Shown here: piece by piece, positions 24,259 to 56,547 of the stretch
How positions within the stretch are numbered: position 1 is the stretch's first letter
Layout of the letters: each line of letters starts with the position of its first letter
IMG/VR virus record: IMGVR_UViG_3300021375_000026
DNA: 64,000 nt
Source of the DNA: an uncultured virus (IMG/VR IMGVR_UViG_3300021375_000026)
Taxonomy: Duplodnaviria; Heunggongvirae; Uroviricota; Caudoviricetes
Reading direction: 5' to 3' (one strand)
The notes under the pieces: generated by a model
What the model was told of the DNA's origin: nothing
The model's database searches: none
Seen by the model: only the letters and a program-made list of their open reading frames with translations
Made by a program: the position numbers and the translations under genes

Positions 24259-27200
24259 TTAACCTATACCCCACCAATCAGGACTACCCCCACCTGTATT
24301 AGCGGCGGCTAAACAAACATAAGTCCTTGAGTTTTTATCATCTATATTACCGTGTGTTCCATTTAAGAAATCACCATTAGTATTCAAACTAGGTTTAGCG
24401 GCACTACCCGTATTATTAATTATAGTATATTGTGTGCCTACTGTTGCGTTATAAGGTAAAGTTAATGTTCCACCTGTCCAATAAATAATAGCACCGCTTT
24501 GTTCCACTTGCCCTTCACCTACATTACTTAGTGTTGTATTACTACTTATTGCGACTACATTTACTTTTGAGTTTACTTGTGATAAATCATTACCAAGAAT
24601 CCATGTCCTACCACCAAATGATGTTTGTTTAGCATTACTAATAACAAGTTGATTATCACCTGTATTAGAAGCGGGGTCGTGTCTGCCGATTACTACATTT
24701 CCGCTACCTGTTGTTAAATTATCACCCGATAAATAACCTAATGTTATATTATGTGAGCCTGTGGTTATTGCCCCACCTGCTGTATGACCTAGTAAAGTAT
24801 TCCCATCACCCGAAGTAACTGCATCTCCGGCATAATTACCAATAACTACGTTCATTTCTCCACCTGCAACAGCACCACCTAAAGCATCGTAACCTATTGC
24901 TATGTTATCTGATTCTGTATCAAAACCATCTCCGGCATTTCTTCCAATACCGATGTTTCTATTACCTGTTGTTACATCATTTAATGCACCTGAACCTAAT
25001 GCGACATTGTAAAGACCACTTGTAGCGGCTTGCCCCGCTTGATAACCAACAAATACTGAATCAGAACTTGTTATGTTATAACCCGATGAAGAACCAACCA
25101 TAACATTTCTCCAACCTGTTGCAGAAGCACCTGCTTGGTCGCCTATTGCTGTATTATAACTAGATGTTGTAGCCGTTTGTAGCGAAAAAGCACCTACTGA
25201 TATGTTTCCATCTCCGGTAGTTATTGCTTTACCCGATTCTTCACCTACTGCTACATTCTGATTAGCACCACTTACCCAAGCCACACCTGCGTTAGTACCA
25301 AGACCTAAGTTTCTGCTAGAAAGTGTAATTGCATCTGATAAATCGTTAATTTCAGAAGCACCGCCACCTGCTTCCGCCCATGTTAAGCCACCTGTGTTGC
25401 CGGATTGTGCGGTTAAAACATATCCGTTAGTAGGGTTGTTTGAAACTTGTAATTTTGCTTCATTAATTGCTTGGTCTGCTATGTAAGCCTGTGCAATTGC
25501 AGTTCCTTGCCATGTTCCTGTTCCGATAGTGCCTAGTGTAGTAATACTTGTAGTACCTGCTGCTGCAATTGCAGTTCCGCCAATAGTAATTGCATCTGCT
25601 TCTAATGTACCATCAATATCTGCATCTCCCGATATATCTAAACTAGCAGCATCTACTTCACCTGTTACAGTTATTGAATCTACAAATGTATCTTTGAATC
25701 TTAGACTTGTAGTACCCAAATCAACATCACTATCAACAGGTGGATAAATTGCACCATCTGAGATATGTAATTGAGTTGCTTGGTTAGCGTCAAATCTTAC
25801 TGTGTTATCAGCGTGGAAGTATTTTACTGCCCCTGCGTATTGGTCTGAACCATTAATGAAATAGATAGCATCATTATTCACATTTCCATTACTATCCTTT
25901 TTGAAATTAATACGACCATACAAAGAAGAAATATCTATGTCACCCGTTTCGTCAAGTGTTCCTGTTATTGTTGGGGTTGCTATTGTCGGTGAAGTTAGAG
26001 TTTTGTTAGTGAGGGTTTGAGTACCTGTTAATGTAACATCACCTGTACCATAACTGTAAGACTCAATCTTTTCTTTAATAGCACCGGATGACATCAAGTG
26101 GTCGTCAGTATCAACAAACTCAGTTCCTATGTCAATATCATTGAAAGTATGACCACCTAAAGTAATAGAACCTGTCGTTGAAAAACCTGCCGCAGTAATA
26201 GTGCCTGTTGTAGCATCATTAGCATTATTCTTTAGGAAAGCATCATCGACATTGAAAGTAGTGCCACTCAATGAAATGTTAGTTCCTGCTGAGTAAGTGG
26301 TGTTTGTATTTGTATCAGTAGAAGCAATAGTTATGTTGTTAGCATCAGTATGTGTTAATGTAACATTAGAACCCGCTACAAACATAATATCTTGAGTGCC
26401 TGAACCTGCGCCACTTTCTGTTAATCGTAATCTTATATCGTTAGAAGCATCTACAAAAGAGATAGCATATTCATTTTGAGTATTAGTATCAGTATTAGTA
26501 ATAGCACCTGTTGCCGCACCGAGATAACCCCATTGAGCATTAGAAATTGTTACTGAACCAATGTTTTCTAATTGCTCTCCTTCTGCTGCTGTCAAATTAG
26601 AAAGTTCAGTTACTTGTGATACAGCAATTGTTTTGTTGCTTAAGGTCTGAGAACCCGATAGTGTAGCAACCGTTGAATCAATAGCAACTGTTACTGTATC
26701 AGTATTACCGACTACTGTATCTATTCCTGTTCCACCTGCAATATCTAATGTATTACCATGTGCAATAGTTTGATTAGTGCCGGAATCTCCTGTTAAGGTA
26801 AAAGTAGTTAATTGATTTGTATTAGTGTTAGCCGTCATATCGTCAACAACTAAATCAATTGTCCCATCCCCATCTTCATAGGTAGCCGATATTCTTGTTT
26901 CAGTATTGCTTGTAAACATAGCCCCTACTATATCTTGAACAGCCTCGGTAGTTAATTGTGTATCTGTATTTAAATCATCAACCACCAAATCAATTGTTCC
27001 ATCCCCGTCTTGATAAGTGGCTGTAATTCTAGTCTCCGTGTTAGAACCAAACATAGCACCTACTATGTCCTGTACTTGTTCGGTACTTAGTTGCGTGTCT
27101 GTATTAGTAATAGCACCGGAAGAAGCACCCAAATATCCCCATTGTGTTGCTGTAATTGTAGTAGCACCTATGTTTTGTAATTGGGTTATTTCACCCGATG

Positions 27201-30200
27201 CAAGGTCGTCTGTAAGAGCATAGTTATTTGCACTAGCCGCTATACCATCTAGTTTACTCTTTAAAGTATTAGTAAAGTTATTTTGTGTAAGACCACCATC
27301 ACCGATAGAATATGTTGTGTTTGTATCAGTAGCGTTTACGTTTGTACCACTTATAGCAAGATTGCTGTTTGCTGTCGCAAATACAATAGCCCCTGCGGAA
27401 TCATCCCATATAAGTAATCTATCACCGTTTGGGTCAGACAAAGATTCTATACCTAAATGACTTAGATTTACGGTTGCATCACCACTTGTAGCACCGCCAC
27501 TTAGACCTGTTCCGGCCACAACGGAAGTAATGTCTCCTGCGCCTGTTCCAAAACCTTGTGCGGCTATGTAATCAAAGACAACATCTCCTGTTACTAAACC
27601 TGCGTTGCCGTTAGCAACTGCACCTGTACCCGATAATGTTGCCGCAGTACCTAAACCTAAATTGGTTCGTGCTGTACCTGCATTGGCTAAATCAGATAAG
27701 TTACTTGTCTTTACTAATTTTTCACCTAATGAAGTAGCGGTTGTTGTAGCAAAGTTAGCATCATCTCCCAAAGCGGCGGCTAATTCATCTAGTGTGTTAA
27801 GTAAAGATGGCGCACCTGTTGTTATCGCTGTTATCGCAGAAGCGTTTGTTGCTACTTTTCCATCCACGTAGGCTTTAATAGATTGTTGACTAGCCACTTT
27901 TGTAGCACTATTAGTAGCCATATTATCTTCGTCTAAAAGGTCGGAAGATATTGCGTAATTATTTGCCGAAGATGCTATACCATCTAGTTTTGATTTAAGG
28001 GTATTAGTAAAATTGTTTTGAGTTAATCCACCATCCCCTACTGAATATTCGGTGTTAGTATCGGTCGATGTAATAGTTACTGCACCACCACTTTCAGAAA
28101 TACTTACATTAGTACCTGCTGTAAATGCTAAGGTTTCACTAGAACCTAGTGTATTGCCACCTGCGGTAATTGTTCTAAAGGTGTTATCATTAGCGGTCAT
28201 ATCGTCAACAACAACATTTATCTTTCCGTTTGTGTCATCATAAGTAGCCGCTACCCTTGTTTCAGTATTGCTAGCGAACATACCACCAACTATGTCTTGC
28301 ACTTGTTCTGTGCTTAACTGAGTATTTGTATTTAAGTCATCCACTACTAAATCTATCGTGCCGTCTCCATCTTGATATGTCGCACTAATTCTAGTTTCTG
28401 TATTAGATGAAAACATAGCACCTACTATATCTTGGACTTGTTCTGTTGATAATTGAGTATTAGTATCTGTTGATGCGATAGTTAGAGTACCCGCAGTATC
28501 GTCGTAAGTAAGTGATACGTTACTACCTGCGGTCAATAAACCATCTATGTAATCTTCAACTTGTTCTTGACTTAACTGTGTATTAGTGTTAGTGTCTGCT
28601 GATGTTATAGTTACTGCACCACCGCTTTCTGTTATCGTTACATTAGAGCCTGCTGTGAAGGCTAATGTTTCTGATGCGCCAAGCGTATTACCGCCTGCTG
28701 TAATGGTTCTAAATGTATTGTCATTTGCAGTCATGTCATCAACGACAACATTTATTTTACCGTTAGTATCATCGTATGTTGCTGCTACCCTAGTTTCGGT
28801 GTTAGAAGCAAACATACCACCCACAATATCTTGTACTGCTTCCGTTGTAAGTGGTTGTGTATCTGCTGTCATGTCATCGACTACAAAGTTAATTCTTCCA
28901 TTAGTATCATCATAGGTTACTCCTATCCTAGTCTCCGTACCTACTAACATAGCCCCAACAATGTCTTGTACCTCTTCGGTACTTAATTGAGTGTTAGTAT
29001 CACTAGAAGAAAGTGTTAATGTTCCTGCACCATCATCATAAGTAGCAGTAACATTTGTTCCGCCTACTATAAGACCGTTGACAAAATCTTCAACCTGTTC
29101 TTGAGTTAATTGAGTGTTAGTATCAGCAGACGCAAAAGTAATTGTGTCGCTTCCTGCTGTTGTAGTAATAGTTACGTTAGAACCTGCTGCAAACGTAAGT
29201 GTATCAGTAGCGGCATCTGCAACTACGTTATCTTGCCCCGATACTGCTACGGTACTGAAAGCATTTTGGTTATTCTCACCACCTGCACCTGCGGCTATCC
29301 AAGTAAAACCTGTTGTTGCTTGGTCATAACTAAGTAAATAATTATCAGTAGGAGAATTAGTCGCTTTAAGATTTGCTTCATCTATTACATTGTCTGCTAT
29401 AACAGTAGCACCATCAGCAGAAGATGTTACTTCACCACTATGGTTAGGGTGAACATAATTATTTGCAGAAGTAGCGATATTATCTAACTTTGTTTTTAAG
29501 GTATTAGTAAAGTTATTTTGTGTTAACCCTCCGTCTCCTACGCTGTATTCAGTATTTGTCGAAACAAAGTTTAGTTTACCGTTGGTGTCATCGTAAGTTA
29601 CAGAAATGTTAGTTTCAGTTCCACCATCGACCATAGCACCAATTATATCTTGCACTTGTTCATCAGATAGTTGAGTATTTGTATTAGTATCGGTTGATGC
29701 AATTGTTACTGCACCTGCATTCTCACTAATAGTAACATTAGAACCTGCGGTAAACGCTAAAGTTTCGCTTGCGCCAAGAGTGTTGCCCCCCGCAGTAATG
29801 GTTCTAAAAGTATTTGTATCAGTAGTCATATCATCGACTACAATATCTATTTTTCCATTTGTATCGTCATAAGTTGCCGCTACTCTAGTTTCTGTATTTG
29901 AGGCGAACATAGCGCCTATAATATCTTGTACTTGTTCAGTAGTTAATTGTGTGTTGGTATCGGTTACTGTATTGGTAAAAGTAATTTTATCTCCGCTACG
30001 TGCAATAGATAAACCCGTACCTGCTTCAAGCACTATATCGTCAGTACCACTAGCACTATCAGTTAATCGAATCTTCTCTTCATCAGCATTGTCGCCATCA
30101 ACAGCAGAAATGCTGTAAGTAGTATTGTTATCTGATGATTGGTCGTCAACTACTAAGTCTATTGTTCCATCACCATCTTGATAAGTTGCAGTTATGCGTG

Positions 30201-32328
30201 TTTCAGTATTTGAAGTGAACATAGCCCCTACAATATCCTGCACCTGTTCTGTGGAAAGTTGCGTGTTGTCGTTGGCTGTCATATCGTCAACTACAAAATC
30301 AATCCTACCATTTGTGTCATCGTATGTTACGCCGATTCTTGTTTCTGTTCCAACAAGCATAGCCCCCACTATATCTTGTACCGCTTCTGTTGTTAACTGC
30401 GTGTTTGTATCTGTTGAAGCAATAGTTAATGTTCCTGCTGCGTCATCATAAGTAACACTTACATTTGTACCTGCTGTGATTACCCCTGCTACGAAATCCT
30501 CAACTTGTTCTTGTGTTAATTGAGTATTTGTATCTGTATCTGTTGGAACAGCCCATGTAAAAGAACCATCACCATCTGAACGTAAAAATTGTGTAGCAGA
30601 ACCGTCTCCGGTTACATTTAATTTACCTGCTGTGATTGCATCATCAGCGATTCTTGCTGTTGCGAATGTACCGCTTGTAATCTTACTTGCCGCTAGGCTT
30701 GGAATATCACTTGCAGAAAGACCATCATCGAGAATGTTTATTTCTGCTTTAGTAGCAGTAATACCTAAGTTTGTTAGAGCGTTGCCCTGTTGTGTAGAAG
30801 TAAGTCCTTGACTATCGGTATCTGTTCTTAATCTGTTGCCTAAAGCAGTAGAAGTTGTTGTCGCATAGTTAGCGTCGTCTCCCAATGCTGCTGCTAATTC
30901 GTTAAGTGTGTTTAATGCTGCCGGTGCAGAATCTACAACCCCTGCAACCTCAGAATCTACATACGCCTTTATTGACTGTTGACTAGCAACCTTAGTTGCC
31001 GAGTTAGAAGCCATATTATCTTCGTCTAGTAAATCTGATGAGATAGCGTAATTGTTAGCACTTGCAGCAACTCCGTCTAGTTTGCTATGGTCTGCATCCG
31101 TAAACACATTTGAATCTGATGCTGATTCTACTAAAGTCCTAATTTCAGCAGCAGTTTGGTCTGCTGTCGCACTTGCTTCTATGGCGTTTAATTTAGTATG
31201 GTCGTCATCAGTAAAGACATTAGAATCAGTAGCAGACTCTACTAATGTTCGTATTTCTGCTGCTGTTTGGTCTGCGGTTGCAGATGCCTCAATAGCATTT
31301 AACTTACTGTGGTCTGCGTCTGTAAATACATTAGAATCAGTAGCGGCTTCGACTAACGCTCTTATTTCTGCCGCAGTTTGGTCGGCAGTAGCACTAGCCT
31401 CTATACCATCTAATTTATTTTTTAATGTTGTCGTAAAACTATTTTCTGTTTGGCTTGCTACTGAAAGGTCTAGTTTACCATTAGTATCATCGTATGTTAC
31501 GGTTATACCACTCTCGGTATTACCTGCAATCATAGCACCAATAATATCTTGCACTTCTTCGGTAGTTAACTGTGTATTAGCAGTCATGTCATCGACAACA
31601 AAATTAATCCTTCCGTTTGTATCGTCATAAGAAACACCAATGCGTGTTTCAGTACCTACAAGCATATCTCCTACTATGTCCTGCACTTGTTCTGTTGTAA
31701 GTTGTGTATTCGTATCTGTACCTGTTATTGTTACTGCGCCCGTAGCACCACTTATAGAAATATTAGTACCTGCTACTATGGATGTTACGCCTGTGTTTGT
31801 TAGTGTTACTGTGCCGGAAGTACCACCACCACCTAAACCTGTTCCTGCTGTTACTCCTTCGATGTCTCCTGTTGCCGCCGCTACTGATGCTAAAACTACC
31901 CAAGCATCTGTACCTGTTTTTCTAATAGTTGCTTTAGCATATTGCGCTAAAGAAGTAGTACCACTAACTGTTACGCCGGATGCACCGGAGAGTGTTATTG
32001 CACCCGCACCTATATTTAGTACGTGTATTTCAGTTAAACCATTTACGAAAGGAACATTAGCATTAGTGGGTATAGTAAGTGTTAATCCACTACCCGAATT
32101 AAAAACAATTAACCTACCTTCATCTTTACGAAGTAGTGTGTAGTCAGCAGTTTTAGTTGTTGCCGGTCTAACGTCAACAGAAGTACCGCCGACAGTCGAA
32201 CCGTCTCCATAGAATAAAAATCCTGCATCTGCATCTTTATACAAATGTTGTGTATGAGGCGTTACTGCTAGTCTTTCACTTTCAGTAGTTAGAAAGATAT
32301 TTTTATTGTCTGTTAATTTTTCTGCCAT
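24259..32328 (-). CDS. Giant repetitive tail/head fibre (2689 aa)
   Basis: About 15 TQLxxEQVQD repeats, three ASATADQTAAEIR repeats, two (L)NTLxELAAALGDDAN fibre motifs, and C-terminal NxAIG-type beta-roll repeats. Confidence 0.85.
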   Translation of the reverse strand: MAEKLTDNKNIFLTTESERLAVTPHTQHLYKDADAGFLFYGDGSTVGGTSVDVRPATTKTADYTLLRKDEGRLIVFNSGSGLTLTIPTNANVPFVNGLTEIHVLNIGAGAITLSGASGVTVSGTTSLAQYAKATIRKTGTDAWVVLASVAAATGDIEGVTAGTGLGGGGTSGTVTLTNTGVTSIVAGTNISISGATGAVTITGTDTNTQLTTEQVQDIVGDMLVGTETRIGVSYDDTNGRINFVVDDMTANTQLTTEEVQDIIGAMIAGNTESGITVTYDDTNGKLDLSVASQTENSFTTTLKNKLDGIEASATADQTAAEIRALVEAATDSNVFTDADHSKLNAIEASATADQTAAEIRTLVESATDSNVFTDDDHTKLNAIEASATADQTAAEIRTLVESASDSNVFTDADHSKLDGVAASANNYAISSDLLDEDNMASNSATKVASQQSIKAYVDSEVAGVVDSAPAALNTLNELAAALGDDANYATTTSTALGNRLRTDTDSQGLTSTQQGNALTNLGITATKAEINILDDGLSASDIPSLAASKITSGTFATARIADDAITAGKLNVTGDGSATQFLRSDGDGSFTWAVPTDTDTNTQLTQEQVEDFVAGVITAGTNVSVTYDDAAGTLTIASTDTNTQLTTEAVQDIVGAMLVGTETRIGVTYDDTNGRIDFVVDDMTANDNTQLSTEQVQDIVGAMFTSNTETRITATYQDGDGTIDLVVDDQSSDNNTTYSISAVDGDNADEEKIRLTDSASGTDDIVLEAGTGLSIARSGDKITFTNTVTDTNTQLTTEQVQDIIGAMFASNTETRVAATYDDTNGKIDIVVDDMTTDTNTFRTITAGGNTLGASETLAFTAGSNVTISENAGAVTIASTDTNTNTQLSDEQVQDIIGAMVDGGTETNISVTYDDTNGKLNFVSTNTEYSVGDGGLTQNNFTNTLKTKLDNIATSANNYVHPNHSGEVTSSADGATVIADNVIDEANLKATNSPTDNYLLSYDQATTGFTWIAAGAGGENNQNAFSTVAVSGQDNVVADAATDTLTFAAGSNVTITTTAGSDTITFASADTNTQLTQEQVEDFVNGLIVGGTNVTATYDDGAGTLTLSSSDTNTQLSTEEVQDIVGAMLVGTETRIGVTYDDTNGRINFVVDDMTADTQPLTTEAVQDIVGGMFASNTETRVAATYDDTNGKINVVVDDMTANDNTFRTITAGGNTLGASETLAFTAGSNVTITESGGAVTITSADTNTNTQLSQEQVEDYIDGLLTAGSNVSLTYDDTAGTLTIASTDTNTQLSTEQVQDIVGAMFSSNTETRISATYQDGDGTIDLVVDDLNTNTQLSTEQVQDIVGGMFASNTETRVAATYDDTNGKINVVVDDMTANDNTFRTITAGGNTLGSSETLAFTAGTNVSISESGGAVTITSTDTNTEYSVGDGGLTQNNFTNTLKSKLDGIASSANNYAISSDLLDEDNMATNSATKVASQQSIKAYVDGKVATNASAITAITTGAPSLLNTLDELAAALGDDANFATTTATSLGEKLVKTSNLSDLANAGTARTNLGLGTAATLSGTGAVANGNAGLVTGDVVFDYIAAQGFGTGAGDITSVVAGTGLSGGATSGDATVNLSHLGIESLSDPNGDRLLIWDDSAGAIVFATANSNLAISGTNVNATDTNTTYSIGDGGLTQNNFTNTLKSKLDGIAASANNYALTDDLASGEITQLQNIGATTITATQWGYLGASSGAITNTDTQLSTEQVQDIVGAMFGSNTETRITATYQDGDGTIDLVVDDLNTDTQLTTEAVQDIVGAMFTSNTETRISATYEDGDGTIDLVVDDMTANTNTNQLTTFTLTGDSGTNQTIAHGNTLDIAGGTGIDTVVGNTDTVTVAIDSTVATLSGSQTLSNKTIAVSQVTELSNLTAAEGEQLENIGSVTISNAQWGYLGAATGAITNTDTNTQNEYAISFVDASNDIRLRLTESGAGSGTQDIMFVAGSNVTLTHTDANNITIASTDTNTNTTYSAGTNISLSGTTFNVDDAFLKNNANDATTGTITAAGFSTTGSITLGGHTFNDIDIGTEFVDTDDHLMSSGAIKEKIESYSYGTGDVTLTGTQTLTNKTLTSPTIATPTITGTLDETGDIDISSLYGRINFKKDSNGNVNNDAIYFINGSDQYAGAVKYFHADNTVRFDANQATQLHISDGAIYPPVDSDVDLGTTSLRFKDTFVDSITVTGEVDAASLDISGDADIDGTLEADAITIGGTAIAAAGTTSITTLGTIGTGTWQGTAIAQAYIADQAINEAKLQVSNNPTNGYVLTAQSGNTGGLTWAEAGGGASEINDLSDAITLSSRNLGLGTNAGVAWVSGANQNVAVGEESGKAITTGDGNISVGAFSLQTATTSSYNTAIGDQAGASATGWRNVMVGSSSGYNITSSDSVFVGYQAGQAATSGLYNVALGSGALNDVTTGNRNIGIGRNAGDGFDTESDNIAIGYDALGGAVAGGEMNVVIGNYAGDAVTSGDGNTLLGHTAGGAITTGSHNITLGYLSGDNLTTGSGNVVIGRHDPASNTGDNQLVISNAKQTSFGGRTWILGNDLSQVNSKVNVVAISSNTTLSNVGEGQVEQSGAIIYWTGGTLTLPYNATVGTQYTIINNTGSAAKPSLNTNGDFLNGTHGNIDDKNSRTYVCLAAANTGGGSPDWWGIG

Positions 32329-39782: not shown

Positions 39783-39849
39783 GTAAAAGACCAAAACAAT
39801 AGAAATTATTATGCTAATACTTATATATCCCTTCAATTTATCCTTGTTT

Positions 39850-41283
39850 ATGCGAAGGGTGCATGGAGGCAAAGACCTCATCGAGAAGTTTGCGAAAGAT
39901 AGAAGTTTTAGTAATATTAGTGAGTTTGCTGAGTTTCTACACGAAGTTGAACCAAAGCGTTCAAAGAATGCTTGGCGTTCTGCCATCCAAAGGTGGATGA
40001 AGGAAGGAAATAGCCCATTTAAGGATAAAGAAGAGTATCATAATGTTGTTAACAACCGAACAAAGGTATATCACGATGAAGCGGCAGATAAATACTTAGT
40101 AGTGATGGAAGCGATAGATGGATTCTATGTAGTGGAGGGTGAAAAACACCGAGCCATGAAAAAAGCATATTCTGAGGCGGGAGGTAACTTAACAATTGAA
40201 GAAATGGCTAGAGAGTTTGAAATGCCGCCTGCTTGGGTAAGTGAATACGTTAGAGTTAACAAATGGACTCACGGTATGCAACCATTTACGGATAAAGAGA
40301 TAGAAGGTAACACCGTTGATGATTTGGTTGACGAAATACTAGCCATGCGTAAAATTGAAATTATTAAGAAGGCAGAAGGTAAAAGATGGAGACAAGTTGA
40401 GAAAGATGCTATGAAATATAACTACTTTAACGAGACAGTCAAAAAAGATTTCTTGGAAATAGCACAAAAGTGGAAACCTGCTTCCGTAAAGCGTACTAAG
40501 GCACAAAAAGAAGGTGATTTTGCCGTCGTACTTTCCCCAACTGACTTACATTTTGGTAAATATGGTTGGGTTGATGAAGTTGGACAAAGTTATGACTTAG
40601 AAGAGGCACGACATAGAGTTTTGACAAAGACCGAAGAGTTATTGAAGAGACTACCTAGTAAACCCGAAAGATTCTACGTTGGTGTGGGGTCTGATTGGTT
40701 TCATGTAGATAACGACGTTGGTACAACCACAAAGGGTACGGCACAAGATATGGCCGCTACGCCTGCACAAATATTGATGGAAGGTTGTGATTTGGCTAGA
40801 CAACATATTGACCTTTTGAGGACTGTTTCTGATGTTGAGTTAATATTTATGGGTGGTAATCACGATAGACATACAAGTATTATGTTAATGATGTACCTTG
40901 ACGCTTATTACAAAGATTGTGAGGATGTAAACGTAGTAGTTTCTCCCGAAATTAGACAATATGTTACATACGGTAATAATTTGATTGGATTTACTCACGG
41001 TGATGGTAAAGTTATGAATAAACTAAATGCTTTGATGGCTCACGAAGAAAGAAGTGCGTGGGGTAAAACATCTCACAAACTTTGGTTTCATGGACATCTA
41101 CATCATCAACAAATGCGAGAAGCGGGTGGTTGTTTGATTATACAACTTCCTAGTCTTGCAGGTGAAGATAGATACCATAGTCGTAACGGATATGTTATGG
41201 CTAAAGCAGGGTTGTCTGCATATATTATAGATAAAGAAGAAGGGTTAATTGGTAGCCTGTTTGCGCCGGTGGTACATGAATGA
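39850..41283 (+). CDS. Calcineurin-like metallophosphoesterase with N-terminal HTH region (start probably 39850)
   Basis: PTDLHFG, GSDWFH, GGNHD, FTHGD, HGHLHH; TATA box CTTATATA ~25 nt upstream. Confidence 0.85.
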   Translation: MRRVHGGKDLIEKFAKDRSFSNISEFAEFLHEVEPKRSKNAWRSAIQRWMKEGNSPFKDKEEYHNVVNNRTKVYHDEAADKYLVVMEAIDGFYVVEGEKHRAMKKAYSEAGGNLTIEEMAREFEMPPAWVSEYVRVNKWTHGMQPFTDKEIEGNTVDDLVDEILAMRKIEIIKKAEGKRWRQVEKDAMKYNYFNETVKKDFLEIAQKWKPASVKRTKAQKEGDFAVVLSPTDLHFGKYGWVDEVGQSYDLEEARHRVLTKTEELLKRLPSKPERFYVGVGSDWFHVDNDVGTTTKGTAQDMAATPAQILMEGCDLARQHIDLLRTVSDVELIFMGGNHDRHTSIMLMMYLDAYYKDCEDVNVVVSPEIRQYVTYGNNLIGFTHGDGKVMNKLNALMAHEERSAWGKTSHKLWFHGHLHHQQMREAGGCLIIQLPSLAGEDRYHSRNGYVMAKAGLSAYIIDKEEGLIGSLFAPVVHE

Positions 41284-41399
41284 GATGGACTTCTGCTAAG
41301 TGTTGGTCGTGTGGGTGGGAAGCCCCACGTATGCAAATGCACTTGGCGGTTGAAGGTAAGTGTCCTTACTGTGGAAAGAAAGATTTACATCCGAGGTGA
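41280..41399 (+). CDS. 39-aa CxxCG/CPxCG zinc-finger micro-protein (not in ORF track)
   Basis: MRWTSAKCWSCGWEAPRMQMHLAVEGKCPYCGKKDLHPR*; ATGA-coupled to the upstream gene. Confidence 0.7.
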   Translation: MRWTSAKCWSCGWEAPRMQMHLAVEGKCPYCGKKDLHPR

Positions 41400-41403
41400 T
41401 ATT

Positions 41404-42912
41404 ATGGGTTTTATGCAAGATTTTTCTATGGAACGTAGTCGAAAAGACATTAAGTATTTCTACCAATGGTTAGGTTATACTTGGGGCGACCACATAGGAG
41501 AATGGATGGAAATGTACGGTGATAGAAAGGGTGCAGAAGTGCATCGTGTTTGTATTATTGCACCACGCGACCATAGTAAGTCTACTACTCTTAGGGTAAA
41601 ACTATTACATCAATGTTTGTTTGAAAAGAAGGCAAATGGTAAACCCTTTACTTGTTGGTTGATTTCTGCGAGTAAAGATACTGCTATTAGAAGATTACAA
41701 GAGATTAGAGAGGACATGAAACAACATCCTCAGTTGTCTAGGTATCTCGACCCGAAAAGAGGTAATAAAACTGAAATGTATTTTACCAATGGGTCTTGGA
41801 TAATGGCTACATCGGTAGGTTCAGCGATTCGTGGTGAACACCCTGCTTGTGTAGCATTTGACGATGTGTTAGTTGATTCTGATGAAATGAATCCTCACAC
41901 TTTACAACAATGGTTTAGGAAGGCAATTTCCCCTATGCTTTCGCCCGGAAGTACGTTTTACGTGGTTGGTACACCTATGTCTATGACTGATTTGTACCAT
42001 ACTGAAATGTTAAGTAAAAAGACTTGGAAAAGTGGTACTTGGGGCAGTATAGTAAACTATGATGAATGGAAATCTAGTGATGGGGATATTGAGCCTAAAG
42101 CACTTTGGCCGGAATACCGTAGTGTAAAGTTTTTGTTAGAACAGAAAGAAGCGATAGGAGACTTGGAGTTTTCGCAGGAATACCTGTGTAGGGTTGTTGA
42201 CGATGACGCTTCGGTATACCCTAACAACTTAATTCGTAAGAATCTTATCATGGAACACACTATACAAACTGATAGGTTAGATAACAACAGATATATTATA
42301 GGATTTGACCCTGCACATGGTCTTGGTAAAGATTACAGCGTAATGATATGTCTTAGACAAGACGAACAAGGATTTATTCATTTTGTAAATATGTGGAGGC
42401 GTAACGATTTCCCACCGGATAAGCAAGCGGATATGTTAATCGAATGGTCTAAGAGATATGGTAACTGTGGAGTAGCAGTTGAGGATGTGGGTTTTCAACA
42501 GATGTACGAAAGTTTGCTTGCACAAAAAGGTGCGGTAGTGGATTATAGACCTAGTAAGGTAGGCAACAGAACACTCAAGCAAGGATTACTAAACAGGCTT
42601 AGAGTTTGGTTTGAGAGAGAGATGATTGCATTTCCTTATGGTGATGATGAAACCCGTAGGATGGTTGAGATTATCCTAGAAGAATTAAGACTTCACGCTT
42701 GGCGTGATGGCGTGATAGTGGACTTAGGTGTTCACAACGATACAGTAATGGCTCTTGCACACGCAATAGACCAATTTACATATAAGATTCCCGATATGCC
42801 GGTAGTTATGAAAACTATGACGGGTGGACAATGGTTAGGTGGTAAAGCCAAAATCAATAGACCCTCTAATACAGGTGTTGGTGGAAGAGTAATGGAGAGA
42901 AGAAGATTATGA
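41404..42912 (+). CDS. terL: Terminase large subunit (start reassigned to 41404)
   Basis: Walker A APRDHSKS, IRGEHP..VAFDD (Walker B), VVGTP, FSQEY, nuclease GFDPA...DYS, HNDTVMALA; GAGGTGA SD. Confidence 0.95.
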   Translation: MGFMQDFSMERSRKDIKYFYQWLGYTWGDHIGEWMEMYGDRKGAEVHRVCIIAPRDHSKSTTLRVKLLHQCLFEKKANGKPFTCWLISASKDTAIRRLQEIREDMKQHPQLSRYLDPKRGNKTEMYFTNGSWIMATSVGSAIRGEHPACVAFDDVLVDSDEMNPHTLQQWFRKAISPMLSPGSTFYVVGTPMSMTDLYHTEMLSKKTWKSGTWGSIVNYDEWKSSDGDIEPKALWPEYRSVKFLLEQKEAIGDLEFSQEYLCRVVDDDASVYPNNLIRKNLIMEHTIQTDRLDNNRYIIGFDPAHGLGKDYSVMICLRQDEQGFIHFVNMWRRNDFPPDKQADMLIEWSKRYGNCGVAVEDVGFQQMYESLLAQKGAVVDYRPSKVGNRTLKQGLLNRLRVWFEREMIAFPYGDDETRRMVEIILEELRLHAWRDGVIVDLGVHNDTVMALAHAIDQFTYKIPDMPVVMKTMTGGQWLGGKAKINRPSNTGVGGRVMERRRL

Positions 42913-43175: not shown

Positions 43176-43337
43176 ATATTTTTTTTCAAAAAAATTGTAA
43201 AAAATTGTTCGTGGTGCTAGGCGGGTATAGGTACGTATATCGGTGTATTTTTGGAACTAAGTGCATAAACTACACTAGGTGTTATACACTACACTTGGTG
43301 TAAAAAACTCACCAAAAAAGAGCCAGGGAATGCTAGA

Positions 43338-43356
43338 CCGAAAACCTTAATAAGGG
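43338..43356 (+). promoter_or_regulatory. Archaeal BRE+TATA promoter for the 43.4-45.2 kb transcript
   Basis: CCGAAAACCTTAATAAGGG is a purine-rich BRE plus TTAATAAG; the first hairpin starts ~25 nt downstream. Confidence 0.6.
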
Positions 43357-43375
43357 GTATGCTAACCGAGGCTTA

Positions 43376-43590
43376 GAGCAGCGTGGCTGCTTGGACTAGG
43401 CGGTAAAAGCGACTTAGTGCGGGAACGGCGAAGCATTGAAAAATGCTTTGATGTAAGATACTGTTCAACCTTGAGTGTGATAGCATTCATCGAGTCGTGG
43501 CTAAAAATATTAGCCCAAGACGAAAAAATGAAAAATGGCCGGAGTCAATCTAGTTATCTAAATTGATAATGACACGCCAAGAAGTAATAA
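43376..43590 (+). ncRNA. Multi-hairpin structured RNA or long 5' leader
   Basis: Consecutive stems: AGCAGC/GCTGCT; ACTAGG/CTTAGT; GAACGG/CTGTTC enclosing CGAAGCATT-GAAA-AATGCTTTG; TTCAT..GTC.TGGCTAA/TTAGCC..GAC..ATGAA; TTATC/GATAA. No substantial ORF. Confidence 0.5.
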
Positions 43591-43664
43591 CCCTTTAATT
43601 AGGTAAGATGTAAGGAATCTCGGAACGCATCTATAAATAAGAAATTGAAAAGGGAGGTATATTT

Positions 43665-43946
43665 ATTTCAGTAATAGAGATAACTATATCACATGACACA
43701 CCTCACGATTTTTTCAGAAGCCTCATTGTTCTGTACCCAACAGGTACATACAAGAGGCCAATTGAAAGTTCAGAGGTGCGAGACTCAAATTGGTTTGTCC
43801 TTACGGTTAGTTCTGAAACATTCGTAAAGCAATTTACAAATGTGGAAGAGCAAACCCCCAAGGTTAAATTAGTTTGGTTCGCTAGGGAAAACGATGCCGG
43901 TCTTATGAAAGATTGGCGTTCTGACCCTGCAAACTACACCCCTTAA
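43665..43946 (+). CDS. 93-aa hypothetical protein with probable non-canonical ATT start (not in ORF track)
   Basis: AGGGAGGT SD 6 nt before an in-frame ATT. Open frame (M)SVIEITISHDTPHDFFRSLIVLYP...WRSDPANYTP*. Stop lies in the palindrome CACCCCTTAAGGGGTG. Confidence 0.6.
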   Translation: MSVIEITISHDTPHDFFRSLIVLYPTGTYKRPIESSEVRDSNWFVLTVSSETFVKQFTNVEEQTPKVKLVWFARENDAGLMKDWRSDPANYTP

Positions 43947-44103
43947 GGGGTGGTCATGTGGTTGTTGTAGTCACAAAGTCTTGTGGCCTTAGCACTAGAA
44001 CATCGGTTAAGTCTAAGCGTAAAAGGGAAAGCGTCTGATTACACAAAGCCCACCCCTCTACATGGGGGGTGTGGCCTAATATCAATAATAGGATGGACAT
44101 ATA

Positions 44104-44187
44104 ATGAATATGAGAGATGAATTAAAGATACTTATAATCACGGATGAATACGAGTATTCTGAGTGGATTATTGACGCTAACTGTTAG
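44104..44187 (+). CDS. 27-aa acidic peptide (not in ORF track)
   Basis: MNMRDELKILIITDEYEYSEWIIDANC*; occupies a cassette slot between two hairpin elements. Confidence 0.45.
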   Translation: MNMRDELKILIITDEYEYSEWIIDANC

Positions 44188-44269
44188 AGTTAGCCGAGAC
44201 GGAAATACGTAAAACTCTAGGGGGGCAGTAATGCCTCCCTAGTAGTAATAATAAAAGGAAGTTAATAAT

Positions 44270-44434
44270 ATGAAGAATGGTAATATAATTCGCTGTATCT
44301 TATGCAATCATTTCATCATGCCTAACTTTGGTTGGACATTAGGTAATAATGCTCAGCCTTTAGCACAAGGCCGATGCTGTGATGAATGCAATAAGTTAGT
44401 TATTGAAGAGAGACTTAGAATTGTCTTAGAGTAA
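44270..44434 (+). CDS. 54-aa zinc-finger protein (not in ORF track)
   Basis: CILC...GNNAQPLAQGRCCDECNKLVIEER, a pattern seen in small phage proteins; AAAGGA SD. Confidence 0.75.
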   Translation: MKNGNIIRCILCNHFIMPNFGWTLGNNAQPLAQGRCCDECNKLVIEERLRIVLE

Positions 44435-44547
44435 ATAATTAATGAGACGGACTAACATAAAATTGTGGGGGGGTAGTGCTGCAACACTACCGCCTCACTC
44501 TTAACTTAACAAGAACACCACATAATTACTAAAGGAGGTAATAAAAT

Positions 44548-44787
44548 ATGTCAACAATGAAGATATATGTATATGGTAAGAGCAAGAATGACATCAACGG
44601 TAGACTAGCAAATGGTGAAGAAGTATTAGGATATAACTTCTCCATCTTTGGCGGTGGCGGTTGGTATCATTTGGACAACACCTTAGAAGTAGGGACGATA
44701 ATAGCAACCTATACTAAGAAAGGTTCAGATGATTATTCACCTATTGCTCGATATTGGTATACTTGGAATGGTACTGCCTTAGTATAA
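44548..44787 (+). CDS. Hypothetical protein (79 aa)
   Basis: AAAGGAGGT SD; cassette slot. Confidence 0.75.
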   Translation: MSTMKIYVYGKSKNDINGRLANGEEVLGYNFSIFGGGGWYHLDNTLEVGTIIATYTKKGSDDYSPIARYWYTWNGTALV

Positions 44788-44896
44788 GGTAGTATTAGAC
44801 GGACTAACACAAAATTGTATAGGGGTAGGGTTTGCATCCTACCTCTATACTCTTAACTAAACAAGATAAATAATTATAATAAAGGAGATAATAAAT

Positions 44897-45160
44897 ATGA
44901 CAGATAAATTAGAAGATGCAATTAAAATCATAAACACCTGTATTCAAGAGGCGGCTACTAGTAATAATGCCTTTACTAAACTAAAGGTACTTAATGCTAG
45001 AATGAGCAATCAGTTAGATGATTGCTTTGGTTTAATAGCCGATTACATGGATGCTATAAGTGAAGCAGAGGCTTATGCTTCACTAGACGGTCATCATTGG
45101 GAAGAACACGATGATACACCAGATAGTATTCCATGCAACCAATTGAACGGTGAATGGTAA
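44897..45160 (+). CDS. Hypothetical acidic helical protein (87 aa)
   Basis: AAAGGAG SD; cassette slot; followed by hairpin plus T-tract. Confidence 0.75.
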   Translation: MTDKLEDAIKIINTCIQEAATSNNAFTKLKVLNARMSNQLDDCFGLIADYMDAISEAEAYASLDGHHWEEHDDTPDSIPCNQLNGEW

Positions 45161-45190
45161 GATTAAACAAGTTAGATAGAAACACGTAAA

Positions 45191-45236
45191 CCCCTCATGG
45201 GATGTCGGCAGGCATCTCATGGGGCGGCCCTTTTTT
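45191..45236 (+). terminator. Hairpin plus T6 terminator closing the mini-gene array
   Basis: CCCCTCATGGGATGTC-GGCA-GGCATCTCATGGGG followed by TTTTTT. Confidence 0.6.
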
Positions 45237-45433
45237 AATTTGTTTTATCTCTATTATAATATCCTGTTATATTAGAAAAAGAAAAAACCTATTAGAATCC
45301 AAATCCAATTATTATTTAACACTAGTGTATATATTACAAAAAAGAAAGGGATTTCAAAATCCAAATCCAAATATTATTTTAGACTCCTGCCCCATTTAGA
45401 GGCAGGAGTTTTATGTATATCCGTCAATATTAA

Positions 45434-45613
45434 TTATATTTCAAAGATTTTTTTATATGGCTTACATAATAATTTTGTATCATCAACAATAATTATCATA
45501 CAATTAATAACATTACCATCATCACTTATACTATGATAACTGACATTATAATGTGCGCCATAATTAGCATATCCATGAAAACAATATTTTGTGAAATCTA
45601 TTTTCGGCCTCAT
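45434..45613 (-). CDS. 59-aa hypothetical protein (not in ORF track)
   Basis: MRPKIDFTKYCFHGYANYGAHY...KKIFEI*; CAGGAGG SD and CTATATATA TATA box upstream. Confidence 0.65.
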   Translation of the reverse strand: MRPKIDFTKYCFHGYANYGAHYNVSYHSISDDGNVINCMIIIVDDTKLLCKPYKKIFEI

Positions 45614-45897
45614 TTTTCCTCCTGTATCTCTACAATATTTCGGAGTAGTAGTCAGTATATATAGTTATTGATTGAGCAATTTCTATTAATATTATAGTAA
45701 TTATTAATATTATTATTACTTATATTAAGAAAACAAAAAACTATTTTAGAATCCAAATCCAATTATTATTTAACACGTGTTAAAAATAAAAAAAAGAAAA
45801 CAAATCCAAATCCAAATCCAAATATTTTATTTTGACAGATTGAGGGAGATATACCCCCTCAATCCTTACGTAAATAATTTATATAATCGATCGAGAT

Positions 45898-46236: not shown

Positions 46237-46613
46237 ACATTTTTCCTCCTGCATCTTCACTATCTCTACGGTTCTACAATTTCTGAGAGTAGGGTTCAGT
46301 ACTTAATACTTTTGATAATGGATTCTTGACAATATAACAGACCCGTAGGGCGGAAAGACTATAAGCCTGCATCTCATATCATAACCCCCACATACACTTT
46401 TTTGTGGTACATAGTGAGAATAGTAGTACCGAAAGACTATATACCCCCATCCCATGTCATAACCCCCCGATAACCTCCTTTATGCGACAAATAACACCTT
46501 TCCCCTAGTGTATAAAAAATAAAAACAAAAATTGAATCCAAAATCCAAATCCAAATTATTTATACTAGGGGGTATATACCCCCCTAGTTTTTACATCTCC
46601 TTTTTCTTAGGGC

Positions 46614-46844: not shown

Positions 46845-47075
46845 GCTAGCAGGGGTTAGTATATATACCCTTCGGTTAAGCAATCTTGATATGATGAAGA
46901 GGTTCGTAGAACGCAACCTTTATAGACCTACTGTGGTACGTTGAGGATGATTAGGATAGGCCGAAGAGAGACACAATTTGCAGTATATTGAAAAGAAAAA
47001 CATAAAGAATAAAAATCCAAATATGAAGAGGGAGGCCGTTGCAGCGACCTCACCTCAACATAATATGGTGGCAAT

Positions 47076-47222
47076 TTATAGTTGTTGTAAATATTCTTTG
47101 AATGCTTTTTCATCCATAAATATTTTTAGTACCTCTTTATGATGAGCATCTAATAACTCGTTCAATTCTCTTATTTCTTTTTCGGTATTTTTAATCTTCT
47201 CTTGTAGGTCGCTTCTGTCCAT
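47076..47222 (-). CDS. 48-aa coiled-coil protein (not in ORF track), leaderless
   Basis: MDRSDLQEKIKNTEKEIRELNELL...YLQQL*; AAGTATATATACCG promoter ~25 nt upstream. Confidence 0.7.
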   Translation of the reverse strand: MDRSDLQEKIKNTEKEIRELNELLDAHHKEVLKIFMDEKAFKEYLQQL

Positions 47223-47253: not shown

Positions 47254-47520
47254 TTATTCTTCTTCTTCTCTACATAAATATTGTATATAATTACTAACAA
47301 TTGGTAATTTACCTCTATTTATCCTATTCCAACCATTACCATCTAAAGCATCTAAAAACTTTTCTCTATCAAATCTAGGGTTATCGGCTGATAAATATTG
47401 TATAAAATTACTAACAATTTGATAGTAAAAGTCTTGAGTATTTTCATCTATTATACTATCTTTAGATACTGATGTTAGGCATTCTACTATCATTTCATAA
47501 TCGCTTCTTGTTAGGCTCAT
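47254..47520 (-). CDS. Conserved-looking small phage protein (DNPRFDREKF motif), leaderless
   Basis: MSLTRSDYEMI...ADNPRFDREKFLDA; AAGTATATATACCG promoter. Confidence 0.75.
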   Translation of the reverse strand: MSLTRSDYEMIVECLTSVSKDSIIDENTQDFYYQIVSNFIQYLSADNPRFDREKFLDALDGNGWNRINRGKLPIVSNYIQYLCREEEE

Positions 47521-47764
47521 ATATCTCGGACTGTATGCCGGTATATATACTTATGGTTTTAGTAATCTCGGGCTTATTTGTTATGCAGGCAGGCAGGCAA
47601 AAAAAAGAAAAAATCTCAAAATCCAAAAATCCAAAAAAGATTCAAAATCCAAAAATCCAAAAACCACACTCTAGTGTATATACACAAAAGACAAAGCGTA
47701 CGCTCTAAATCCAAATCCAAAATTATAATTTTTTTGTGGGGTGTAAGACCCCCATGTTTTAGAT

Positions 47765-48349
47765 TTAATATTCTAATATTTCACCCGTCTTAGTGCATCG
47801 GCATTTCATTATCGACCAATCCCATATACTCTCTTGATTGTATTTCTTCCCTAGTGTTAAAGCCGCGTCTAAGTCTTGAACCCATGTTGAAGCATCAACG
47901 TGAATCTGTTCTTTTTCATCTTCCCATATTCCGCCGAATACGTTCAAAGCACAGCCGCCGCCATCGGGCAAGTTATACAATAAGTCGCGGCTTCCTTGAG
48001 AGCCTCGGTAATCATTGAAGTTAGAAGCACTAAACAGTTCATGTTTAACGTCGTTACTCATGTATAAATCATTCAAAAGGTTGTCTTTATAATTCCACTC
48101 TTCTGATAGTCCTATTCTCGGGTAATTATTAGGGTTCTGTATTGCGTCCTCTATTTCATCTGAGGCTACTGAAAATATGTTGCCGACTACACTCATTAGT
48201 GTATCTTCATTCATCGATTTCAATACATCACTTTGTATCTTATCGAATAAGAAGAATGTGGGGCGTTTAACATAAACCCCCACTTGATAGCCCCATCTAA
48301 ATGAGACGCGTTCGTTGTTGTGCATTAGGTAAGTCCCGTCTAACTCCAT
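47765..48349 (-). CDS. Hypothetical protein (194 aa), leaderless
   Basis: GGIWED...DAS.W...LDAAL.LGKKYNQESIWDW; AAAGACTATAAG promoter. Confidence 0.75.
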   Translation of the reverse strand: MELDGTYLMHNNERVSFRWGYQVGVYVKRPTFFLFDKIQSDVLKSMNEDTLMSVVGNIFSVASDEIEDAIQNPNNYPRIGLSEEWNYKDNLLNDLYMSNDVKHELFSASNFNDYRGSQGSRDLLYNLPDGGGCALNVFGGIWEDEKEQIHVDASTWVQDLDAALTLGKKYNQESIWDWSIMKCRCTKTGEILEY

Positions 48350-49135
48350 AACCTTACGACGTATAGGGGGCTTATAGTCTTTTTGTTTTTATATAATACG
48401 TTGAAATTAGTCGGAAAATCAACGAAAAAAAAAGAAAATAAAGAAAATCCAAAAAATAATGAAAATCCAAAATCCAAATGAAAATCCAAAATCTAAAAGA
48501 TTATAAACCCCCATCTCATCTCAAACACGGGGTTGGGTACGGCATAACACACACACTCTAGTGTGTACTATACAAAAATAAAAACGTGTGTCCGAATCCA
48601 AATCCAAATATGCTTATATACTTATGGGTGTAGCATTCTCACTTGATTTGTGAATGTAATATAACAAAGTATATATACCGCCATCTCATCTCAGGCACGG
48701 GGTGGACTGCGATTACCTCCCAACCCCGTTATTATTATTCGTGTCTAAGACGGGCTGCGGGTTTATAGTCTTTGCGAGGTGGTACTCTCTCGACGCTTGT
48801 GATTCACGATTCATAATGATTATAAACCCCCATCTCATCTCAGATTAGGCTAGGTCATGGCGGCTATTGAATAATCGTAAAGGGAGGTTTGTATTAGGGT
48901 TAAAGTAAATGCGATTCTATCTCTATTATACAGGTAAGTCAATCAACAGATTTCGACTTTGACGCTTGTGATGCGTAGATGGCAACCTTTTTACGTGTGG
49001 GTGTCCTCAGAGGCCTTGATAGGTATGTTAGAGGGTCAATATCATAGGCGACTTATTTCAACCGTAATAACAACCCCATCAATCGAGGTTACTTTTCCCA
49101 TAACTATAAGTACCGAACCCGCGTATCACGGCTTA

Positions 49136-56485: not shown

Positions 56486-56547
56486 GATGATTGACGCTTG
56501 CGACACCGATACGAACCCTTTAAGTGATAAGAAGGAGACGGAGTAAT

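Follow-up and report, generated by a model that had tools for sequence, protein, structure and literature searches.

The window analyzed here, the whole 64,000-nucleotide (nt) stretch of IMG/VR record IMGVR_UViG_3300021375_000026, belongs to an uncultured marine tailed double-stranded DNA virus and represents most of its genome. Close to the gene for the large terminase TerL (41311 to 42912) lies an array of small, mutually unrelated ORFan open reading frames (ORFs), the cargo, which have no Pfam or PHROG family and no usable Atlas match. These are punctuated by copies of a composite element, which consists of a bipartite motif (GAC[G/A]GA, a free 3-nt spacer, an invariant AC, RY, and AAA(A)) and a strong hairpin 2 to 5 nt further on (Table 1). 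The first-pass annotation, made from the letters of the sequence, had placed this motif and stem after the stop codons ending at 44187, 44434, 44787, and 45160, and the ORF ends, motifs, and stems read as claimed. It had also noticed a degenerate copy near 44035 and a box, TCTTAACTwAACAAGA, shared by two units; that copy and unit D (45173) are sequence variants in the window, with the full motif in relatives at the position of the copy near 44035, and the box is present in units B and C. We read the repeated unit as the entire interval of about 100 nt from a stop codon to the next ATG, which often begins with a hairpin over the stop codon and continues with the single-stranded bipartite motif and a hairpin with one G-rich and one C,U-rich arm; last comes a T-run or, in its place, the box and then an A-rich spacer that includes a Shine-Dalgarno-like site.

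Table 1. Elements, upstream hairpins (HP1), and cargo ORFs of the array, with positions in the 64,000-nt window
Feature	Coordinates	Strand	Description
Element 0	44033..44075	+	Variant motif GTCTGATTACACAAAG and hairpin with invariant apex CCTCTAcATGGGG; part of alignment A2 (95.8% paired)
Cargo ORF, 27 amino acids (aa), family F4	44104..44187	+	No family match
HP1 over stop codon of 27-aa ORF	44176..44194	+	-8.9 kcal/mol, z = -2.74
Element A	44196..44242	+	Motif 44196-44214; 11-base-pair (bp) hairpin 44217-44242, GNRA loop (GTAA)
Cargo ORF, 54 aa, family F1	44270..44434	+	Cys-rich; no family match
Element B	44444..44514	+	Motif 44444-44462, hairpin 44465-44498, box TCTTAACTTAACAAGA 44499-44514; R1 82.5 bits
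Cargo ORF, 79 aa, family F5	44548..44787	+	No family match
HP1 containing stop codon of 79-aa ORF	44769..44797	+	13 bp, -13.5 kcal/mol, z = -3.85
Element C	44796..44866	+	Motif 44796-44814, hairpin 44817-44850, box 44851-44866; R1 65.9 bits
Cargo ORF, 87 aa	44897..45160	+	Singleton; no family match
Element D	45173..45236	+	Variant motif 45173-45190, hairpin ~45191-45224, T6 45231-45236; closes the plus-strand unit
Element E	45381..45426	-	Motif and 10-bp hairpin, apex CCTCTAAATGGGG
Cargo ORF, 59 aa, family F12	45434..45613	-	Final gene in the converging minus-strand ORFan block

When two mismatches are allowed, the pattern AGACGGANNWACRYAAA has five matches in the window against 0.92 expected, a count reached by none of 100 shuffles. 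Three of these are units A to C, one is a new minus-strand copy (45410 to 45426), and one, at 56536, lies within a coding region and has no hairpin. The minus-strand match belongs to a sixth copy that had been overlooked (element E, running from 45426 to 45381), which starts 8 nt past the stop codon of the 59-aa ORF. GACGGA and AC are invariant across relatives, and the elements are confined to the terminase-adjacent region both in the window and in a relative rated 84% complete. No Rfam family reaches its gathering score, the best match between 43000 and 49500 scoring 30.2 bits against a gathering score of 61. Two candidate readings of the motif were ruled out: as a three-frame stop-codon design, since only two frames are closed on inspection, and as a sigma-70 -35 box (TTGACG, in the minus-strand copies), since there is no -10 box at a workable spacing. 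The spacer between GACGGA and AC (44204-44206, 44452-44454, and 44804-44806) occurs in at least 11 variants among relatives, even where both flanks are identical, and would seem to be either unconstrained or a local mutation hot spot.

The position of the unit is linked to stop codons: for 41 of the 45 distinct contexts the GAC lies 8 to 16 nt (mode, 10 nt) past the stop of an ORF that begins with ATG and is at least 24 aa long, and at least six different gene families stand upstream of the motif at this fixed distance. On the downstream side, 27 of the 29 copies that lack a T-run and have an ORF within 150 nt are followed by an ATG 21 to 51 nt past the hairpin, and in the window this spacer is A-rich and carries the Shine-Dalgarno-like site. 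The minus-strand copy closes a converging gene block, with no gene further on. The 34 nt on the 5' side of the motif often fold into a hairpin containing the stop codon (of 20 independent contexts, 8 have a z of -2 or below and 5 a z between -1 and -2, and the other 7 lie close to zero or higher), present in units A and C of the window and absent from B, D, and E. The first-pass annotation had instead drawn alternative stems that would sequester the motif, and these are not conserved: for TAGAGTT/AACTCTA, relatives have TAAAGTT with no compensating change, and the minimum-energy fold is a GCTAACT/AGTTAGC hairpin over the stop codon.

The main hairpin is selected for pairing on the gene-sense strand. 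A total of 79 related loci were recovered from viral contigs through the terminase protein, and a motif-plus-fold scan finds the element in the close relatives (L002 to L019), on both strands and always 3' of ORFs. Hairpin energies lie between -14 and -27 kcal/mol, and the stems contain a G7 run and a CCGCC arm. Among 15 distinct sequences of the B/C type (those with the G7 run), 9 of 13 pairs have varied on both sides while 96.7% of cells remain paired; the covariation score is 0.396 versus 0.156, none of 500 shuffles scores as high, and pairing falls to 36 to 69% when partner columns are slid, although both controls ignore phylogeny. The apex-conserved class (apex CCTCTAWATGGGG) comprises 12 sequences and 10 pairs, 4 of which have varied on both sides, with 95.8% of cells paired, again no shuffle of 500 reaching the score, and one U-G pair unchanged in all 12. 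Each of the 40 unique elements folds more stably in the sense than in the antisense orientation (mean of -21.4 versus -15.1 kcal/mol, a gap whose size is biased by preselection of the set on sense-strand folding energy), and 69 of the 518 pairs in these elements are G-U. The GTAA loop of element A is replaced by GAAA or GCAA in orthologous elements, with the closing pair changing from A-U to G-C, and distant relatives have CTTCGG loops. The compensatory pairs, the sense-strand bias, and the loop types together indicate that the hairpin acts as RNA on the coding strand, in agreement with the first-pass proposal of covarying plus-strand RNA hairpins, for which it had asked for significant covariation and for homologous elements elsewhere.

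Such homologs are found in the viral contigs of relatives, both by pattern scans and with a covariance model (R1) built from the 15 G7-run sequences, in which true elements score 25 to 82 bits. Among 58 loci from a pattern scan of IMG/VR, true elements occur only in relatives of this virus, and most of their contigs were already among the TerL-recovered loci. Seven of the remaining candidates (L090, L092, L094, L114, L116, L118, and L132) were rejected because the match falls within an ORF read as a DNA adenine methyltransferase gene, as were a match at the end of a coding region (L093) and a lone look-alike terminator of 29 bits (L117). A pattern scan of genome contigs gave at least 120 matches, those listed being single chance ones; of the 80 run through R1, none exceeds 27 bits, and the scan is uninformative as to hosts. 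A metagenome scan yielded 34 loci, 10 of them chance matches (6 methyltransferase-like) and 24 true elements that add new compensatory variants and further cargo.

The order of the cargo differs among close relatives, here those whose final 212 nt of the terminase gene (42701 to 42912) match the window at 88 to 99% identity. The window carries F4-F1-F5 and the 87-aa ORF, and its relatives carry, among other arrangements, F4-F1-F2 (L002), F4-F2-F16 (L003), F1-F5-F2-F20 (L005), F4-F5-F9 (L009), and F4, a 61-aa ORF, and F9 (L010). By blastn, homology between the window and L002 stops at 44544, 4 nt before an ATG; L009 differs by a one-cassette deletion whose ends lie within the motifs of units A and B; and 57 nt of element D are 100% identical in L010 between unrelated flanks. 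An identical 34-nt hairpin (GTGGGGGGGTAGTG..CACTACCGCCTCAC) joins at least five gene pairs (F1>F5, F1>F2, F5>F9, and two others), and the B/C hairpin class, with metagenome loci included, has at least eight gene families downstream and at least six upstream. The copy in L009 is chimeric, combining the 5' letters of one variant with the remainder of another, which accounts for one U-U mismatch, the sole unpaired cell at that position. Break points vary, falling at the motif, inside the hairpin, or at the ATG. These comparisons show the elements to be places where close relatives have exchanged, gained, or lost ORFans, as the first-pass annotation had anticipated in describing them as possible joints for swapping cargo. 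Its likeness to integrons holds for this outcome and fails for the mechanism, since the pattern fits ordinary homologous recombination over a unit of about 100 nt. Pfam finds no integrase, transposase, RNA polymerase, or RNase family among the window ORFs scanned, and PHROGs names no integrase or recombinase among the 29 ORFs scanned.

A second line of comparison connects the element to transcription terminators. A T-run of at least 5 within 14 nt of the hairpin is found in 7 of the 45 contexts, namely the D-type copies of the window and L009 and five minus-strand copies in relatives; the D-type copies of L010 and L013 have none, nor does one directly follow the hairpins of units A, B, C, and E. 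In relatives with 66 to 82% TerL identity, R1 gives weak matches (15 to 29 bits) in which a stop codon is followed by an A-rich stretch, a G-run hairpin, and then directly T5 to T8, which by its sequence is an ordinary terminator layout. At the internal elements the box TCTTAAC..AACAAGA stands at the position of the relatives' T-run, and it is kept also in L070 (76% TerL identity). By these matches the element is shown to be homologous to the hairpin-plus-T-run terminators of more distant relatives, and the internal elements look like terminators without their former T-run. The terminase operon itself ends in a T8 (43179 to 43186) located 4 nt past an 88-aa ORF, and the array is thus probably a separate transcription unit. 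The roughly 900 nt beyond this T8 (43190 to 44100) have no convincing gene and are variable among relatives, which carry a 43-aa ORF (F3) in the matching stretch; a perfect palindrome, CACCCCTTAAGGGGTG, lies at 43937 to 43952 over the stop of a doubtful 56-aa ORF.

The virus is accepted as being of archaeal type by its promoters. Sigma-70-like sites show no excess in the window (37 found and 38 expected). Among 532 distinct TATA-like 8-mers ([T/C]TATA[T/A][A/G]N) in the window and the 79 related loci, 34 end exactly 20 to 21 nt upstream of the start codon (ATG) of an ORF with 35 aa or more, compared with 0 to 5 at each other distance between 0 and 80 nt, and the layout is directly visible at the small minus-strand genes 47076-47222, 47254-47520, and 47765-48349. 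This is the geometry of archaeal leaderless promoters, on which the attribution, made already in the first-pass annotation, is based; in the halovirus HF2 the TATA box lies at -26 from mapped starts (PMC8707807). The window also encodes a portal, a tail tube, a tape-measure protein, a family B DNA polymerase, a PD-(D/E)XK nuclease, and an ERCC4-HhH nuclease (PHROGs and Pfam), and the closest deposited phage terminases are only 21 to 25% identical to its TerL. A phage collection contains no DNA match to 43900 to 45450 or to the window, and the nearest record (G001) is without the array region and without the motif. A relative rated 99% complete is 68.5 kb long, and the window is thus close to a whole genome. 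Kinship with the magroviruses (Magrovirales) is at most a possibility. These have genomes of about 100 kb and a near-complete archaeal replisome (MCM, clamp, clamp loader, and primase), with MCM, clamp, and clamp loader listed for all magroviruses in the 2017 magrovirus paper. The window has the family B polymerase, the ERCC4-HhH nuclease, and a phosphoesterase beside TerL, and none of the ORFs scanned here has a Pfam match to an MCM, clamp, or clamp-loader family.

We favor, with a probability of roughly 0.55, the interpretation that the array is built from a lineage-specific, terminator-derived RNA cassette that marks gene ends and doubles as a joint for homologous recombination, in an ORFan region of an archaeal-type tailed virus. 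Copies with a T-run would terminate transcription, whereas the internal copies, as terminators without the T-run, would let the polymerase pass, their hairpins attenuating transcription, shielding the 3' end of the upstream message, or both. The motif could act as a docking platform for a host or viral factor, and cassettes would be shuffled by ordinary homologous recombination between the repeated units of about 100 nt, as proposed for the PeSLs (promoter-early stem-loops) of T4-type phages. Several points weigh against this interpretation. A simple terminator or stabilizer model leaves the role of the conserved motif unexplained, archaeal termination is generally held to require only a T-run, and the upstream hairpin over the stop codon is clear in only 8 of 20 contexts; the preselection behind the strand comparison also counts here. 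Termination, read-through, stabilization, and cleavage are all inferred, since 43484 to 45632 has no cover in the three RNA runs mapped (with one DNA run) from a list of 24, in which one RNA run has 5% of sampled words; elsewhere these runs yield only short relative-derived pieces and are uninformative on expression and RNA ends. In L022 (82% TerL identity) nearly the same 13 letters, GAGACGGACTCAC, stand between a terminator T-run and a TATA box about 25 nt further on, an arrangement that hints at a DNA-level, promoter-side role for the motif, and an AT-rich box 21 to 28 nt before the ATGs of units B and C makes an internal promoter possible.

One more specific idea is that the motif, exposed about 10 nt past the stop with a hairpin on either side, is recognized by a dedicated factor of host or virus, such as a beta-CASP-type nuclease or a termination factor, that couples the end of translation to formation or cutting of the transcript 3' end. 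We regard this as quite doubtful; if true, these archaeal viruses would have a virus-specific mRNA punctuation code that also standardizes cassette ends for ORFan exchange.

The alternative that survives best, though we consider it unlikely, is endonucleolytic punctuation, the main model of the first-pass annotation, in which a sequence-specific host or viral RNase cuts the single-stranded motif between the two hairpins so that the upstream mRNA has a hairpin at its end and the downstream mRNA starts with one. The layout suits such a cut, with about 17 nt of single-stranded motif between hairpins where the stop-codon hairpin forms (the 8 contexts of 20 with z of -2 or below, and 5 more between -1 and -2), with GACGGA and AC invariant around the free 3-nt spacer, and with a motif start 8 to 16 nt past the stop that approximates the edge of a terminating ribosome; the internal copies then lead, with no T-run, to a Shine-Dalgarno-like site and an ATG. 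However, the upstream hairpin is absent from 7 of the 20 contexts, units D and E of the window among them, and the motif also precedes plain terminator copies, at which cutting would be pointless. Among the ORFs scanned, Pfam finds neither a nuclease gene beside the array nor an RNase family, and the region left uncovered in the three RNA runs provides no RNA ends to support cuts.

An improbable alternative places the function at the DNA level, with the motif as a factor-binding site or a weak BRE/TATA-like element and the unit as a composite terminator-promoter resembling PeSLs or the HF2 repeats. Several parallels fit: the PeSL stem-loop sits inside a promoter (PMC2839356), the HF2 intergenic repeats are promoters with a TATA box starting at -26 (PMC8707807), GAGACGGACTCAC occurs three times in L022 about 25 nt upstream of a TATA box, the motif half-sites are about one helical turn apart in the sequence, and the AT-rich box before the ATGs of units B and C is at the position of this clade's strong TATA boxes. 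The motif is nevertheless unlike those strong promoters ([T/C]TATA[T/A][A/G]), and its spacing is fixed to the upstream stop, whereas the distance from hairpin to ATG varies from 21 to 51 nt. Copies at converging operon ends stand directly before a hairpin and T8, where there is no gene to drive, and the G-U asymmetry and the GNRA and UUCG loops point to a transcribed hairpin. In L022 (6330 to 7560) the three copies, (GAG)ACGGACTCACGGAAGAG, each past a terminator T-run and about 25 nt before the TATA box, are followed by a conserved start region, ATGGACTAAATGAG, with the letters of the window motif set in a different module order.

Integron-like site-specific recombination, in which the motif and a folded single-stranded DNA hairpin would form an attC-like site for an undefined recombinase, is very hard to credit. 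Cassette order does vary among close relatives with elements at every joint, hairpin structure is conserved over variable sequence, and one 57-nt element keeps 100% identity although its flanks are otherwise unrelated, but the conserved letters lie outside the stem and are not paired within it, the loop types are RNA-specific, homology spans the whole stop-to-ATG unit with differing break points (a homologous-recombination pattern), and in a window that is nearly a whole genome the ORFs scanned gave no Pfam match to an integrase, transposase, or HUH family, PHROGs likewise naming none in the ORFs that it covered. Processive antitermination at a nut-like (boxA/boxB-like) site, also offered in the first-pass annotation, at which a factor loads and the polymerase then reads through downstream terminators, is equally far-fetched: the architecture of linear motif plus hairpin and the conserved box after the internal hairpins, kept also in L070, are reminiscent of it, but the known systems, in which N and Nus factors read a boxA consensus and a boxB hairpin, are bacterial and the promoter evidence is archaeal-type, the site is repeated behind each gene and not placed once close to a promoter, terminal copies themselves have following T-runs, and the likeness of the box to boxA is putative.

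The first-pass annotation proposed an undescribed system, a claim that does not stand in that form: architecture and behavior match the PeSL cassettes of T4-type phages (Arbiol et al. 2010, PMC2839356; Comeau et al. 2014, PMC4122927), and a likeness of this kind was already suggested for an archaeal tailed virus (PMC3950731). PeSLs are described as units of about 100 bp that fill the interval between one gene's stop and the next gene's ATG, with polyG/polyC stem-loops ending transcription, a 3'-terminal Shine-Dalgarno site, and crossovers that fall within the stem-loop (PMC2839356). They carry a strong sigma-70-like early promoter inside the unit, and termination or attenuation by their stem-loop has been shown by reporter assay. 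The window likewise has a repeated stop-to-ATG unit of about 100 nt, and its blastn blocks 44794-44897 and 44444-44544 match each other's counterparts in relatives and end 4 nt before the ATG. Also shared with the PeSLs are a stem-loop in which a G-run precedes a C-run, a Shine-Dalgarno site close to the next gene (3' end of the unit), a position flanking ORFans in a hyperplastic region, and insertions, deletions, and replacements at the units among close relatives, with chimeric units and crossovers within the stem-loop. In contrast to PeSLs, there is no sigma-70-type promoter (37 sites versus 38 expected) in this virus with TATA-box promoters, a conserved linear motif precedes the stem-loop at a set distance of 8 to 16 nt from the stop codon, and converging operons, too, end in copies. 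Lacking the sigma-70 promoter, these are not PeSLs in the strict sense; terminator activity is here suggested indirectly, by T-runs at 7 of 45 copies and in distant relatives, and any promoter activity would be putative. By analogy, the array is best read as an archaeal-virus counterpart of the T4-type PeSL cassettes and not as an integron or a nut site. We have not found the motif or this clade's cassettes described in the literature, though subscription-journal papers and supplements could contain such a description.

Bacterial intrinsic terminators consist of a hairpin and a U-tract, and REP-type intercistronic hairpins stabilize upstream mRNA. The elements resemble the former in having an A-rich tract and a GC-rich hairpin with a stable tetraloop, with a T-run at terminal copies and in distant relatives, and differ from them in the internal copies without a T-run, in the added bipartite motif, and in an apparently archaeal host. 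The internal hairpins after stop codons could protect 3' ends as REP hairpins do, but there are only five or six copies in one genome region and no REP-associated transposase was found. One-gene cassettes whose boundaries combine conserved structure with variable sequence recall integron attC sites, which differ in that here the conserved motif is unpaired and 5' of the stem, core and inverse-core sites are lacking, no integrase was found, and the exchange fits homologous recombination. Among archaeal tailed viruses, the haloarchaeal virus HGTV-1 carries before its ORFs a conserved motif of TATA box plus inverted repeat, which its authors likened to PeSLs and for which they suggested roles in regulation and shuffling (PMC3950731). 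Both viruses have a repeated motif with an inverted repeat accompanying many small ORFs; the HGTV-1 motif is described as preceding ORFs and including a TATA-like box, whereas the window motif is tied to the preceding stop and is not TATA-like. The class I and II intergenic repeats of HF2 are proven promoters, from reporter assays and mapped starts (Russ, Pfeiffer and Dyall-Smith 2021, PMC8707807). They too are conserved, lineage-specific intergenic repeats of an archaeal tailed virus whose position is kept among relatives, but they have no described covarying hairpin, and the element in the window has the behavior of a signal for gene ends.

Uncultured marine archaeal-type viruses are abundant, and to our knowledge almost nothing is known of how they control transcription and take up genes. 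The locus offers a testable example in which a covarying RNA hairpin and a motif at fixed distance mark gene ends, with natural recombinants showing that accessory genes move as stop-to-ATG modules, and through it the PeSL principle, described in T4-type phages, reaches a virus whose promoters are archaeal. The locus also supplies defined sequences for assays of archaeal termination, read-through, and RNA processing and for spotting cassette boundaries in viromes. If the motif recruits a specific factor, it would bear on how archaeal 3' ends form and how polarity arises.

Other minus-strand ORFans in the neighborhood also end with G-rich hairpins (~45850-45885, 46564-46588, ~47030-47060, and 47735-47756), for example CTAGGGGGGTATATACCCCCTAG and another with a CTGCAA loop, accompanied by motif remnants only (TTACGTAAGG and GATGTAAAAA). 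Between 45264 and 48616 there are at least nine plus-strand copies of AATCCAAATCCAAAT after an A-run, which on the minus strand read as TTTGGATTTGGATT plus a T-run and lie 3' of the end hairpins of the minus-strand ORFans; these are possibly the termination signal of those genes. Directly 5' of the terminase gene is a metallophosphoesterase ("DNA repair exonuclease") gene at 39811 to 41283 on the plus strand, and the 2017 magrovirus paper reports a PolD-DP1-like exonuclease inserted within the structural module of group C. The structural module contains two giant minus-strand ORFs: one of 2,689 aa (24259 to 32328), with a PHROG virion protein match and a summed weak THUMP-domain score of 51 bits in which no single stretch passes, and one of 2,353 aa (6605 to 13666), with no family match in Pfam or PHROGs. 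An LDL-receptor class A domain (27 bits) is present in the structural-module protein coded at 22611 to 23309 on the minus strand, and there are no tRNA genes in the 64-kb window. A promoter-like block, AAAGAyTATAwACCCCCATCTCATCTCA, is repeated within 48420 to 48850 and 46345 to 46470, with plus-strand copies at 48496, 48667, and 48815 and an inverted copy at 48744 to 48773, in a 600-nt divergent gap before the replication genes; from their sequence and placement, these blocks could be an early control region or an origin.

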